DNA from: a virus
Direction: 5' to 3' (one strand)
UHGV virus genome: UHGV-0278671
Length of the DNA stretch: 27,730 nucleotides
The translations under genes were made by a program, and so were the position numbers. Shown piece after piece: positions 11,565 through 16,047 of the stretch; the first letter of the stretch is position 1, and each line of letters starts with the position of its first letter. The notes under the pieces were generated by a model. The model saw only the letters and a list, made by a program, of their open reading frames with translations, did no database searches and had not been told where the DNA came from.

Positions 11565-11748
11565 CTCTTTCACTCCATCCGCGATGAACCATGAGAACGT
11601 CGTTGACGATGGCGTGCATTTTCCCGTCTTTATCATCAACGTATTTTCTGACCGTACCGCGACTACATTTCAGTCTGCGTGCTACTTCTGTCTGGTTTCC
11701 GTATGCTTCAACGAGCATGTCTGGAATGGTTTTTACTGAGAACGTCAT
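11542..11748 (-). CDS. ninH: NinH
   Basis: 68 aa [37 protein letters not shown]... matches lambda NinH as remembered. Confidence 0.85.
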
Positions 11749-12356
11749 GCGGCCTCACTTCTGCTATTTCGCAGGTCTTTGAGTTTCTGTTGGTACTCTG
11801 CCTTGATCGCCTTGCACTCTTCGATAGTCCAGCGATGGCGGTTATGGTTTGATTCGATTTCGTCTACTGCTTCCTGCCCGATACGGCTAATCAGTTCGAC
11901 GCGATACGGAACGAGATTTCCGCTTTTGTGCTGGTTGCACACCACGCATTGCTTGTGAATATTGCGTTCATCAAATCGGAGTTGAGGTGCCGCAGCAGTT
12001 GTCCGGTAATGTCCGGCATCCCACTGAGCAGACGTGAGCGTTCCGCACGAGATACATGGTAAGTCGCGGTCTCTTTCTCTGATGAAGGCGTTTACGGCTT
12101 GTTGGGCTTGTTTAATCCAGTAACTGCGGGGCTTTAAGGCGAGTTTTCGAATCTTCAGTTTATCTTTCTGTTTCTGCTCCTCTCGTCGTAGTTTCTTCTC
12201 TGCTGCTTTTTCCGCTTTTTCGCGTTCTTTACTTCGTCGTTCGAGTGCTATCTTTGTTCCACACTCTGGAGAGCACCACCACTGATTAGCGAATGCAGGG
12301 TGAAACCATTCCCGACATTCACCGTTTTTACATCGTCTTCGTGCTGGTTTAGCCAT
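11745..12356 (-). CDS. ninG: NinG (Rap) recombination protein
   Basis: 203 aa [33 protein letters not shown]... matches lambda NinG as remembered. Confidence 0.9.
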
Positions 12357-12531
12357 CGTCTTCTTCCTCGTACATTGAGCTATTCGGATCGCTCATCAGT
12401 TCTGCGCAGCAGTGCTCACACACGTGAACTTCCAGCACATGCAGCTTCTGACCGCAGTTAGCGCACGTTAAAGCTCGCTCGACGCTTTCTTTCTGGTATT
12501 GAAGGGATTGGGATGGGCTAAGCATTAACAA
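12349..12531 (-). CDS. ninF: NinF
   Basis: [44 protein letters not shown] matches lambda NinF as remembered. Confidence 0.85.
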
Positions 12532-13465
12532 CCTCCATACAAACTTTCACGAATGCCGTTGCTACTTCTGCATTGATTGCGTTTCCATATCCAATAATTC
12601 GCTGATCTTGATTGCGCTTTGCCATTCTTCCCAGTGTGGACTTGCCTCGTCCCAAGCTTTTGGCAATGCCATTAACCATCGGGAATGAGCCGGGTCTAAC
12701 TGGACGATATTTTTCATCTCTACAGTAAAGCCAGTCTGCATCTCTCCAGAAGCCGTTAACCGGTAATGGGTACATAGCTTCACCGTCCCGGGAAGTTTCA
12801 AGCAGATTCTTGGGGTTCCGCTCTTGTCTTTTCCGCTGTAGCAATGCGTTGAACCTGTTGCATCGTTCGCTAAAGGAGTTTGCCATCCCGCTAGTCTCAC
12901 GCATCCAGATAGGTTCTGAATTCCCCTGCGTGTCTCTGGCTGAAAGTTGATATTTGTCGTTGGAGTAGGCCACCCAATACAATCGCTGCCTGATGTGCGG
13001 AGAACCGAAGCCCGCAGCGCAAATATCGGTACCTGCAGAGGTGTAGTTCGCACCTTCCAAGTCAGTTTGTACAAGGTCGAGCCAAGCGAGGCCGTCTGCG
13101 CTTGCAACCTGTTCGCCAATAACGATGCCAGGATTGCATTTTTCAATAAGCCAGAAGAATGCCGGCCATAAGTGCCGCTCGTCATCAACCCCTTTTCCTT
13201 TGCCTGCCGAGCTGAAAGGTTGGCATGGGCAACTTCCTGTCCAGATACTCTTGTTGTCTGGCCATCCTGCTTTTCTAAGTGCATAGCTCCAAACTCCGAT
13301 TCCTGCAAAAAAGTGGTGCTGGGTAAATCCTCGCAAATCACCTGGTGTGACATCTTCAATACTCCTTTCATCTACATACCGTCTGTCGCTGTTGTATGCA
13401 CTGCTCAGCGGCTTTTTCCACCCACGGTCTGATATTGCTGTACGGTGGGTTATTCCAGATTGCAC
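12518..13465 (-). CDS. DNA (cytosine-5)-methyltransferase-like gene, atypical; true start uncertain
   Basis: Motif I FFAGIG, motif IV GSCPCQPFSSAGK, ENV-like IVIGEQV, motif VIII PHIRQRLYWVAY, motif X-like GYGNAINAEVATAF. Only ~25 residues separate motifs I and IV; the first ~33 codons overlap the Dam fragment; a second long ORF (12562..13371) overlaps in another frame. Confidence 0.55.
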   Translation of the reverse strand: MQSGITHRTAISDRGWKKPLSSAYNSDRRYVDERSIEDVTPGDLRGFTQHHFFAGIGVWSYALRKAGWPDNKSIWTGSCPCQPFSSAGKGKGVDDERHLWPAFFWLIEKCNPGIVIGEQVASADGLAWLDLVQTDLEGANYTSAGTDICAAGFGSPHIRQRLYWVAYSNDKYQLSARDTQGNSEPIWMRETSGMANSFSERCNRFNALLQRKRQERNPKNLLETSRDGEAMYPLPVNGFWRDADWLYCRDEKYRPVRPGSFPMVNGIAKSLGRGKSTLGRMAKRNQDQRIIGYGNAINAEVATAFVKVCMEVVNA

Positions 13466-13652
13466 CGTGGCTTATCCACTCAGAATTTAGCGCGTCGTCG
13501 GCCTCAGTTAACCAGTGAGCGCACAGAGCATTTTTGTCGCTCGCTGCCGAATCCAGCCAGAATCCAAACTCAATATCCAGTGCATCAAAAAGCCAAAGCG
13601 GCGTTTGCCAGCAGTCCTTGTCGTGTGCTGGCGTATTTGATTTGATAGTCAT
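13368..13652 (-). pseudogene. Phage Dam-type N6-adenine methyltransferase, N-terminal fragment
   Basis: DKDCWQTPLWLFDALDIEFGFWLDSAAS...WNNPPYS matches the phage Dam family pattern; the ORF stops ~25 codons after NPPY; ATG overlaps the ninB stop (ATGA). Confidence 0.55.
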
Positions 13653-14089
13653 GCAGCCCGATCTCCCCATCTCGCTTTCCACTCCAGAGCCAGTCTCGCT
13701 TCGTCTGACCACTTAACGCCACGCTCTGTACCGAATGCCTGTATAAGCTCTAATAGCTCCGCAAATTCGCTTACACGCATCCTGCTGGTTGACTGGCCTA
13801 TTACCACAAAGCCATTCCCGGCAAGGTTAGGAACAACGTCCTGCTGCTTTAATGCTGCGGTAAACACACACTTCCAGCTTTCTGCATCCAGCCAACGCCC
13901 ATGCCATTCAACCTGACGAGAGACGTCACCAAGGCAAGCCCAAAGCTTTCGATTCTGGTCTAAGCTGCGGTTGCGCTCCTGAATGATCACTACGATTGGC
14001 TTGGTTGGGTCTGGAAGGATTTGCTGTACCGCGTGAATAGCGTTTTGCTGATGTGCCGGAGATCGAATTTCAAAGGTTAGTTTTTTCAT
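13649..14089 (-). CDS. ninB: NinB recombination protein
   Basis: 146 aa from the internal ATG (MKKLTFEIRSPAHQQNAIHAVQQILPDPTKPIVV...), near-identical to lambda NinB as remembered. Confidence 0.9.
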   Translation of the reverse strand: MKKLTFEIRSPAHQQNAIHAVQQILPDPTKPIVVIIQERNRSLDQNRKLWACLGDVSRQVEWHGRWLDAESWKCVFTAALKQQDVVPNLAGNGFVVIGQSTSRMRVSEFAELLELIQAFGTERGVKWSDEARLALEWKARWGDRAA

Positions 14090-14166
14090 GACTTCCCTCT
14101 CCCCCAAATAAAAAGGCCTGCGATTACCAGCAGGCCTGTTACAAGCTCAGTGATGTAGATGGTCAT

Positions 14167-16047
14167 TTAATACTCCGTCACGTTTTCCTGTCGCCACGCC
14201 TCGTCATATTCCGATTTCGGCATATTGGCGATGTAGCTATAAGGCGATCCTGATTCAAGTTGCAGGAACTGGTGCGATTGCTCGTCAAGGAACAACGGGA
14301 CACCACCTTCCCAACCTTCGCCGTTACGTTGTTTTTCAAGCATCAAAACAGATGCCGGAGATGCCAGTAGCTGTTCGTCCTTCTCTGACATCTTTTCACC
14401 ACTCTGAACTCTCTGTAACGCTCTCTCGCGAGCCTTGTTACGCCAGATGATAAAAAGGTTGTCTGTCAGGTCTGTTATCGCTCCAGAGCCTTTTACGTCC
14501 ATTTTCCCGGTTGGTTTTTCTTCGCTATCTCCTTTTCTGGAGTGAGTAACGAGAATGACGTGGGAGTTTGTTTTGTTTTTGAAGTCACAAATCGAGTCAA
14601 CAAATGCTTTCTGCCCGTTATAGTCATCGTCACCTATGCCGCATTTCATCAGGCTGTCGATGATGAATAACTGGATGCCGTATCGGCGGCGAGCGTAGTC
14701 GAATATTTCGATCAGCCTGTCGGCTTTCGCCGTTCCAGTCAGGCCAAACACCCAAAGTCTTTCGTCATAAAATTTAAATGCAGAGTCAATTTCCAGCACT
14801 GGCGGCATCTTGCAGCACGTCGCCTGACGGGTAAGGCGCTTAAGGAGAATACCAGGCTTCAGCTCAAGTGACGCGATGCACGTCTTCACACCCTGACGCA
14901 TTGCCTCAAGTGCCATATGCCCGACAACCTCCGTTTTTCCGTGACCGTTCACACCATTGACCAGCGTCAACTCGGCCTCACGAAACTGGAATTTATCTGC
15001 CAGAGATTCCCACGGTGGATTAAACAGATACTGCTGCTTGCCGTAGAAAGCGTTGATAGTGTCCTGGTAAAACTCTCGCGCGCTGTAGAGTTCTTCAGGA
15101 TCAAAGTAGGATGCCGTGCCGATGTACTGCCAGATTTCATCCTCGGTAACACCGTTCATCAGGCATTCGTTGATGTCTTTGTACGGCAGAGTAACAAGAC
15201 GGCAACGATGTTCACCGAGTCGGCTTGCGATTTCCCTTGCGGCTTCACGACCAACATCATCAACGTCCATCGAGATGAATATTTCCTCAAACCTGTCGAG
15301 GTTGTGGTACTCAAACTCAATCCACTGTTGCTTAGCGCCTTTCCCTCCACCAAACGGCACGGATAACGCCGAGATGCCGTATTGCGCATAGCTCATACAA
15401 TCAATTTCGCCTTCGCAAAGTACAACCGCCCTCACGCCAGCGTCCAGAGCCTGCCATCCGAACAGACAAGGTTCGCAATCACCTTCTGCCATAATGACTT
15501 TCTTCCCGTCCGGGCGCTCAGTGCTGATTCGCTTGACCTGCAACAACTCACCATCGCGTTTGTACGGAAGCACCAGTGCATCAAGTTCTCGTTCTCCATT
15601 CCACACCTTGCCGCTGACAACCTCGTAGCGCTTTACGACTTCTGGCGATATGCCACGCGATTGCAGGTACTCAAGATGGGATTCTGTTCTGGTAACGTAG
15701 CGGGCGATTTTCTTGCGATCAGGTCTGGAGAATTTTTTCTCACGTTTGGCATCGAAATGGTGATCGTCATCCTTGATACCGAGAAATGCTTTCGCTTCCT
15801 GCATAGCCTGATGCAGGTTAATTCCACGACATGCCATCCACAAATCAAGCATGTCACCGCCGTCTCCCTCAGCGAAATCAGCCCATTTTTTCTTGCCGCT
15901 AAGGTTGACCTTAAGGCTGTTTCCCTTGTCACCATTGACGTTACCGGCAACCCACTCATGCCCCTCTTTCTTGCCGTTTGGCAACAGGTGCGGAGCCACC
16001 CTGTCAACCTGCGCCCAAAGCAGGTCGCTAAGTTCACTTGGCGTCAT
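14167..16047 (-). CDS. Bifunctional DNA primase/helicase
   Basis: 626 aa; Toprim-like acidic motifs (VVLCEGEIDCMS, ISMDVDDVG) followed by Walker A GVNGHGKT and Walker B-like LFIIDSLMK; directly downstream of the initiator gene. Confidence 0.8.
   Translation of the reverse strand: MTPSELSDLLWAQVDRVAPHLLPNGKKEGHEWVAGNVNGDKGNSLKVNLSGKKKWADFAEGDGGDMLDLWMACRGINLHQAMQEAKAFLGIKDDDHHFDAKREKKFSRPDRKKIARYVTRTESHLEYLQSRGISPEVVKRYEVVSGKVWNGERELDALVLPYKRDGELLQVKRISTERPDGKKVIMAEGDCEPCLFGWQALDAGVRAVVLCEGEIDCMSYAQYGISALSVPFGGGKGAKQQWIEFEYHNLDRFEEIFISMDVDDVGREAAREIASRLGEHRCRLVTLPYKDINECLMNGVTEDEIWQYIGTASYFDPEELYSAREFYQDTINAFYGKQQYLFNPPWESLADKFQFREAELTLVNGVNGHGKTEVVGHMALEAMRQGVKTCIASLELKPGILLKRLTRQATCCKMPPVLEIDSAFKFYDERLWVFGLTGTAKADRLIEIFDYARRRYGIQLFIIDSLMKCGIGDDDYNGQKAFVDSICDFKNKTNSHVILVTHSRKGDSEEKPTGKMDVKGSGAITDLTDNLFIIWRNKARERALQRVQSGEKMSEKDEQLLASPASVLMLEKQRNGEGWEGGVPLFLDEQSHQFLQLESGSPYSYIANMPKSEYDEAWRQENVTEY

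Follow-up and report, generated by a model that had tools for sequence, protein, structure and literature searches.

A gene nested within a phage C5-methyltransferase gene, and a 513-bp deletion beside it, in virus genome UHGV-0278671

Virus genome UHGV-0278671 (27,730 nucleotides; this whole stretch is called the window here) carries on its minus strand the gene order ninB – Dam-like open reading frame (ORF) – C5-methyltransferase ORF – ninF – ninG, and the locus constitutes the methylase module in the nin region of a lambdoid prophage. Based on comparison of the module with viral and bacterial relatives we found that the gene for the C5 cytosine methyltransferase, here called alpha, contains a second gene, beta, in its +1 frame. 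Selection acting on both frames and a conserved start mark beta, as judged from sequence comparison, as a genuine conserved gene. We consider it probable (about 0.78) that the module represents a nested alpha/beta two-gene C5 methyltransferase that has suffered a recent 513-bp deletion in this genome.

Two reading frames in one methyltransferase gene

In the window, beta (12562..13353, minus strand; 263 amino acids (aa) from ATG 13353, MSHQ...) occupies the +1 frame of the same strand, wholly inside what remains of alpha (alpha', 12518..13378, minus strand; the putative gene of the large, catalytic subunit, with the native start and codons 1-27 missing). Roughly 80 loci from viruses and 79 from genomes showed such nesting too. 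The ATG of beta is located at alpha codon 37, and the Shine-Dalgarno (SD) sequence AAGGAG (13362..13367, minus strand) precedes it by 8 nt; an in-frame ATG further upstream, at 13371, extends beta to a 269-aa ORF (12562..13371). Beta contains W-x-T-P units (GWPTPT, GWQTPLANDATGS) and a motif-IX-like segment, LDPAHSRWLMALPKAWD. The +1 frame is open over 269 of the 287 codons, compared with 9-39% for the remaining 13 long ORFs in the window, and when the synonymous codons of the window gene were shuffled, 269 open codons were reached in just 31 of 20000 shuffles.

Both frames are found together in other phages. Using tblastn, full-length matches with roughly 50% identity were obtained for both alpha and beta in a shared set of phages, with E-values down to 8e-98 for alpha and 4e-79 for beta, and with match starts 4 nt apart, as in the window. 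These phages include Salmonella epsilon15 and 66FD and phages of Erwinia, Klebsiella, Edwardsiella, Aeromonas, Xanthomonas, Vibrio, Pseudomonas, Rhodobacter and Burkholderia. In the protein collection 4998 homologues of beta were detected, and 14659 representatives of 50%-identity clusters matched the beta profile; the alpha motif PCQxFS was present in none of the best 148 of these 14659 representatives. Beta also matched phrog_1008 and phrog_31772.

To avoid selection by beta, 79 species-level genome loci were picked by alpha motifs alone; they span the Alpha- to Epsilonproteobacteria, Desulfovibrio and several phyla of metagenome-assembled genomes (MAGs). The +1 frame was open over 215-416 codons in all 79, with W-x-T-P in 76 and a motif-IX-like block of the LNPxHSxWLMG type in 72. 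Synonymous shuffling of alpha, run 2000 times at each of 39 loci that share less than 85% identity, predicted 3-9 stops in this frame, and between 0 and 34 of the runs per locus attained the observed open length. The loci are phylogenetically related, so that combined probabilities overstate independence. Similarly, among the IMG/VR loci in which the beta motif was located, 79 of 81 had no stop in either frame over the beta span of approximately 260-350 codons, compared with 9-22 stops for the third frame across the same span.

The way in which the sequences vary shows which frame is constrained in each part of the gene. Over 1399 pairs at 72-97% nucleotide identity, the third codon position of alpha was the most variable over alpha 4-111 (alpha-type), and up to about alpha 75 the identity of the beta frame equalled that of the non-coding frame. 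Alpha 76-147 evolved slowly at all positions. The pattern then switches to the beta type over alpha 148-231, where the third position of beta varied most, and over alpha 172-231 the amino-acid identity was 0.60 for beta and 0.39 for both alpha and the third frame. All three positions were frozen over alpha 232-243, after which alpha 256-279 was again beta-type (identity 0.85 vs 0.73 and 0.72) and alpha 280-314, with GNAI and motif X, alpha-type. In the spacer that evolves neutrally in alpha, 36 non-redundant loci contained 0 stops vs 65 expected from synonymous shuffles of beta, and therefore alpha appears to be kept open for read-through.

The start of beta is conserved as well. Of 77 distinct loci, 74 align with an ATG at this site, and 73 have an SD sequence of the GGAG type. 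This SD is read in alpha as Glu-Arg-Ser, encoded among the sequences listed mostly by AGG/CGG for Arg and AGT/AGC for Ser, and the synonymous rate of alpha falls to 0.15 at alpha 28-39 from 0.39-0.43. The first ~40 residues of beta showed no protein-level selection, and insertions and deletions in beta comprised whole W-x-T-P units.

A sequence-only reading of this DNA had pointed to two long same-strand frames as statistically unusual, with a 269-codon ORF at 12562..13371, AGGAG before the MSHQ ATG and W-x-T-P segments; each of these features was recovered, and the shuffles and the other ORFs of the window agree that the overlap is unusual. It had left three explanations of the second frame side by side. 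The genuine overlapping gene is now strongly supported by homology, open frames, the switch in selection and the conserved SD-ATG. Chance overlap was rejected on the open frames (79 of 79 alpha-picked loci), shuffles, substitutions and start conservation, and the same open frames, selection and conserved beta start led us to reject a sequencing frameshift or frameshifted methylase. An alignment of one frame over its full length with no homology in the other, which that reading named as the outcome that would speak against it, was not obtained, as both frames aligned over their full length in the same phages.

The exceptions among the IMG/VR loci were L025 and L067, which may be pseudogenes or sequencing errors. 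In L067 (~2147-2220) an insertion or deletion swaps the frames, so that the N-terminus of alpha runs into the C-terminus of beta and the C-terminus of alpha is a separate ORF. In L025 (2011-2013) a stop in beta separates STH from YSGK (STHCYSGK in other loci), and alpha is intact. Another IMG/VR locus (L051, UViG_3300025687_000016) has an HNH endonuclease gene (2251-2595; PF01844, E 1.4e-5) right after the beta stop, in the frame of beta and inside the alpha spacer; alpha stays open through it (506 codons from stop to stop) as far as GNAIVPQVAA, and the overlap forms a second dual-coding stretch. In L137 (a Desulfarculales MAG) and L138 (Desulfovibrio sp.) the alpha frame is open over 537-573 codons, far more than in other loci, with the usual beta of about 300; a fusion at either terminus or an insertion could account for the long alpha.

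The alpha frame itself matched PF00145 above the gathering score (E 4.9e-14), with the catalytic PCQ and ENV/QxRxR motifs, and it aligned to M.HhaI residues 73-171 (motifs IV-VIII, E 4e-13), in line with the C5 motifs that the sequence-only reading had placed in the frame after the Dam-like ORF. Alpha 42-68 aligned weakly to HhaI 6-32 (motif I). Motifs I, IV, VI, VIII and X are present in alpha. The intact protein has 314 aa, with GNAI and a confidently modelled C-terminal helix judged by inspection to be motif X. No motif-IX-like block was visible on inspection, and the predicted local distance difference test (pLDDT) score of the model was below 40 over residues 172-296. Alpha is therefore described here as carrying motifs I-VIII and X without IX.

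Motif I (FFAGIG) and motif IV (PCQPFS) of alpha are separated by about 25 residues. Between the motif I segment and residue 73, M.HhaI has 40 residues with motifs II and III, where alpha has about 5. This spacing, and an apparent lack of the motif II/III region, had been noted before; the observation is correct, and the short distance is a trait of the whole proteobacterial alpha family rather than damage to the window copy. Proteobacterial alpha has almost nothing between motifs I and IV, whereas alpha of Paenibacillus phage Lily, from the same PHROG, is ordered I-II-III-IV. The 40 residues in front of motif I in proteobacterial alpha (YYNEIDPxAAQWLRNLI...VDERSIEDV; 13378-13230 in the window, 2421-2560 in the E. 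coli record L002) resemble M.HhaI motifs II-III, which we take to be SNEWDKYAQEVYEMNF...GDITQV. Motifs II-III could have moved to the N-terminal side of motif I by a local permutation. BLASTP of the N-terminal 48 residues of alpha against Lily alpha, bearing on this idea, gave no alignment.

A 513-bp deletion in the window copy

Of a phage N6-adenine methyltransferase gene the window retains the 5' part (dam', 13368..13652, minus strand; 94 codons plus stop), which runs from ATG 13652 to TGA 13370-13368 and stops soon after NPPY. Its product matched PF05869 over positions 1-90 of 169 only (E 4.5e-33) and does not contain the full-length domain. The homology to dam ends at 13377, and the foreign part of dam' consists of the last two residues (CR) and the stop. 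In the intact E. coli counterpart L3Cip3 the order is ninB, dam (175 aa), ninE, C5 methyltransferase (314 aa) and ninF; an intact Dam of 175 aa is found in the E. coli record L001, and the module of E. coli K71-77 consists of ninB, ninE, C5 methyltransferase (WP_244495763, an intact alpha) and ninF. A 981-nt query from the window was found in three E. coli genomes as two pieces spanning ~1492-1494 bp, and eight other E. coli genomes matched it from position 100 on with 99.1-99.9% identity.

In a three-way alignment the window followed dam through ...ACAGACGGTA (ending ACGGTA) and then continued with the methylase gene from TATGTAGATG. The crossover lies inside a GGTA microhomology (13377..13380, minus strand), where dam codon ~91 is joined out of frame to alpha codon 28. 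The 513 bp that are absent in comparison to the relatives take in dam's 3' half, the entire ninE gene, and the start and first 27 codons of alpha. By this alignment the deletion accounts for the truncated Dam, for the missing ninE and for a methylase gene that has neither its start codon nor its first 27 codons. That the Dam-type ORF ends shortly after NPPY had been seen correctly from the sequence alone; the mosaic suggested at that time holds only in the sense of a dam/methylase junction, and the deletion behind it had not been recognised.

The methylase gene of the window is incomplete, as its native start, ribosome-binding site and conserved N-terminus are lost. The missing codons 1-27 encode MTAYYNEIDPYAAQWLRNLIDAGEIAP, in which many residues are invariant in the alpha family, and they correspond to a strand-helix unit in the predicted alpha model (E5-8, H12-23). 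The C5 ORF as listed (12518..13465, 315 aa) begins with 28 residues that are dam sequence read out of frame, and its sole upstream in-frame start is GTG 13465 inside dam. Beta is intact in the window, and its exact 263-aa product was found in 45 blocks of the assembly collection, downstream of intact sequence in all eight contexts listed. Because Dam is left without its C-terminal half and alpha without its start and conserved N-terminus, we infer that the module of the window most likely carries out neither m6A nor m5C methylation.

Two ATGA stop/start overlaps are present on the minus strand. The one at 13649-13652 (ninB stop/dam start) is the native arrangement. The other (13368..13371, minus strand, read from sequence), in which the TGA that ends dam' (13370-13368) partly coincides with the upstream ATG of the beta frame (13371-13369), was made by the deletion, and it could, as a speculation, couple translation of beta to that of dam'.

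A putative two-subunit enzyme and its alternatives

In the mechanism that we propose, alpha would form the catalytic large domain (motifs I, IV, VI, VIII and the C-terminal motif X helix), and beta would provide the variable W-x-T-P region and the motif-IX-like segment, for which LNPAHSRWLMGLP is the candidate, as a counterpart of the small (DNA-recognition) domain of single-chain enzymes. Beta would begin at its own SD-ATG at alpha codon 37, and each protein would hold neutral stretches that are kept open so that translation reaches its conserved parts. The two polypeptides may then assemble into an active enzyme by analogy with the two-polypeptide methyltransferase M.EcoHK31I; we infer such a heterodimer, and the division of labour within it, because the nested layout matches that system. 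Likewise, beta is probably translated from its own start, and both polypeptides would be needed for methylation. More specifically, and with slightly less than even odds, the DNA-recognition half (W-x-T-P modules and motif IX) may reside wholly in the +1 frame of the catalytic gene, alpha translating 60-130 neutral codons to reach alpha 232-255 and the motif X helix, and specificity may evolve by gain and loss of W-x-T-P modules.

Several results weigh against this assignment of beta. Beta had no match in Pfam or NCBIfam, and its profile had no match at E<=10 among all PDB sequences. When modelled alone with 64 homologues by AlphaFold2 (AF2), it gave a poor model with a mean pLDDT of 43. In local hhalign comparisons the beta profile scored best on motif IX, both for gp69 of Mycobacterium phage Moonbeam (E 0.0018, probability 15%) and for HhaI (E 0.49), whose sequence as used here agrees with the parts shown in its alignment to alpha; such scores are weak, and the similarity to single-chain methyltransferases (probability 12-15%) was confined to motif IX. 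A hand-built chimera of alpha(1-170), beta (target-recognition domain and motif IX) and alpha (motif X), as well as C-terminal fragments, matched PF00145 no better than alpha alone, and the literature places the target-recognition domain of M.EcoHK31I in alpha. Together with the conservation of alpha past motif VIII (FWRDADWLYCRD, alpha 232-255), the missing database matches, the poor model and the weak motif IX links would also fit a beta that is real and translated without being a methyltransferase subunit, for instance an overprinted gene with a role in regulation or anti-defence, next to an alpha that is complete alone. We regard this as unlikely, since at the place where a target-recognition domain and motif IX belong, alpha lacks any region that is conserved or confidently folded: alpha 172-231 evolves like a non-coding frame, pLDDT is below 40 over 172-296, and in Lily alpha the distance from motif VIII to motif X is just about 60 residues. 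Moreover, the blocks of beta mirror xPTPxAxD and LxPxFxEWMMGxPxGW, which are in frame in Moonbeam gp69, and M.EcoHK31I provides a precedent for a nested subunit. A single polypeptide, made by several programmed frameshifts (alpha-beta-alpha-beta-alpha) or split by sequencing or assembly frameshifts in a single-chain gene, would account for the largely complementary distribution of selected segments between the frames, for single-chain relatives with the same blocks in one frame, and for the swapped frames of L067. It is nevertheless very improbable. Four shifts would be required, and at the boundary that falls at alpha 148-171 no classical slippery heptamer or in-frame stop was seen in the window sequence. 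Both frames remain open over the whole length and far past the segments needed, alpha with none of the 65 stops expected in its spacer and beta from its conserved SD-ATG ~110 codons upstream of where beta-type selection dominates. The architecture also recurs in hundreds of independent assemblies, and M.EcoHK31I is made as two polypeptides.

It could also be argued that beta is untranslated, and that codon usage and motif conservation in alpha keep the beta frame open and conserved as a passive side effect. Over alpha 28-75 the identity of the beta frame indeed equals that of the third frame, and long alternative frames are common in GC-rich genomes, the +2 frame reaching approximately 200-250 codons in roughly a dozen loci. 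We give this hardly any credence: shuffles that preserve alpha predict stops in +1, alpha 148-231 and 256-279 vary most at the third position of beta with identity higher in beta than in alpha, the insertions and deletions are whole W-x-T-P units of beta, and the SD and ATG are conserved through a restricted use of Arg and Ser codons. As for the deletion, neither the junction nor the predicted products (dam' of 94/114 aa and the 315-aa alpha' ORF) were found in 5426 complete E. coli genomes and an exact-protein index. This counts against the deletion part of our account, and it is what would be expected if the truncated dam and the 5'-truncated alpha were an artefact of assembly or cloning. 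However, the junction is clean at a 4-nt microhomology with flanks on both sides collinear with the relatives, the rest of the module shows no further lesion and is 99.1-99.9% identical to intact alleles, and nin-region deletions are commonplace in lambdoid phages, so that we consider an artefact rather improbable. As no other occurrence of the junction or of its products was found, the deletion looks recent and private to the UHGV-0278671 genome.

Gene neighbourhood, annotation and known systems

Upstream of the module lies ninB (13649..14107, minus strand; Pfam NinB, E 8e-54). Downstream, ninF (12349..12525, minus strand; Pfam NinF, E 1.9e-12) overlaps the end of alpha with its start, and ninG (11745-12356, minus strand) follows; ninF is arranged in this way in L001 and L002 as well. 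Coliphages and Shigella phages, among them IME10, Sf101 and HK544, match the flanks of the module at 97-98% identity, and the central ~850 nt had no match at that level in the phage collection. A scan of 12300-14200 for promoters and terminators found nothing inside the module that exceeds the shuffled expectation. A terminator-like GC-rich hairpin with a T run (14114-14137, minus strand) was observed just upstream of ninB, between it and an ORF for a 626-aa primase/helicase-like protein. This is presumably the position of tR2 in lambda.

Standard annotation misses the pair, since any one gene caller reports only a single member of it. RefSeq PGAP called alpha only in the two E. coli records examined (L001 and L002), and the gene calls of the assembly collection contained beta (263 aa) only in all eight contexts listed (L090-L097, 2217-2500), which share a constant uncalled gap of 285 nt that corresponds to ninE and the 5' end of alpha. 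As a result thousands of genomes carry a half-annotated enzyme, with no Pfam or NCBIfam model for beta. Were the recognition half indeed encoded in the +1 frame, its ~14,700 clusters at 50% identity would be among the most widespread long same-strand overlapping pairs in prokaryotic viruses. If alpha and beta assemble like M.EcoHK31I, the family would constitute a natural and abundant split methyltransferase with its recognition module in an overlapping frame, which is relevant to the engineering of split methyltransferases. The pattern also bears on how long overlapping genes are maintained, as selection alternates between frames and neutral spacers stay open. For the prophage itself the message is an ordinary one, its Dam and C5 module being most likely dead through the deletion; what is notable is the scale of the family and the clean mosaic of alternating selection.

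A two-polypeptide C5 methyltransferase, M.EcoHK31I of E. coli HK31 (YGGCCR), was reportedly described by Lee, Kam and Shaw in 1995. Its beta is encoded wholly within alpha in another frame, both chains are required, alpha carries motifs I-VIII as well as X and beta carries motif IX, and in vitro the first 42 beta residues can be dispensed with (PMC2836561, PMC3404938). The present system resembles it in layout: a small same-strand gene is nested in alpha, motifs I-VIII and X are on alpha with a candidate motif IX on beta, and the ~42 dispensable residues have their parallel in the first ~40 beta residues without protein-level selection. However, M.EcoHK31I is part of a restriction-modification system, whereas the methylase of the window is an orphan in a phage nin region, and its target-recognition domain is in alpha, whereas selection here puts the variable W-x-T-P region in beta. 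In addition, the window copy has lost the 5' end of alpha. In M.AquI the subunits are split as motifs I-VIII and IX-X (PMC3404938). This is likewise a natural two-polypeptide C5 methyltransferase with its split within or near the variable region, but here motif X remains part of the large subunit, and the small gene lies entirely within the other.

Both frames are annotated in a few GenBank phage records, namely Lily gp62/gp63 ('g62 internal gene'), Kagunavirus fKuEco01 KE1_032/033 ('Mte8-like') and Xanthomonas phage PhiXhv-18, the record of which lists two 'DNA methyltransferase' genes. They share with the present family an alpha of phrog_363, a beta of phrog_1008 and the +1 nesting. No function or mechanism of the nested genes was given in these three records or in the P. 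larvae phage papers that we searched, and in the literature searched we found no paper that presents the nesting as a trait common to this phage methylase family. Lily gp63 (163 aa, nested) carries LPTPTA and MNPNYCELIMGFPIKW, and the beta profile matched it with an hhalign probability of 84% (E 8e-6); gp63 itself matched phrog_1008 at E 5.8e-44. Lily differs in that its alpha has the canonical order I-II-III-IV and its beta is far shorter.

In single-chain Moonbeam gp69, xPTPxAxD repeats are followed in one frame by LHPAFPEWMMGWPAGW and GNGVVPQ. The first two of these blocks are found in the window in beta (GWPTPT, GWQTPLANDATG, LDPAHSRWLMALPKAW) and the third in alpha (GYGNAI). The likeness to gp69 extends over the blocks PCQPFS, QRER, xPTPxAxD, LxPxFxEWMMGxPxGW and GNGVVPQ, whereas gp69 has all of them in one polypeptide, and its similarity is significant to alpha over motifs IV-VIII only and weak to beta. 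Taken with M.EcoHK31I, through which the layout has been known since 1995, the present family is probably a further case of this arrangement, and an under-annotated one.

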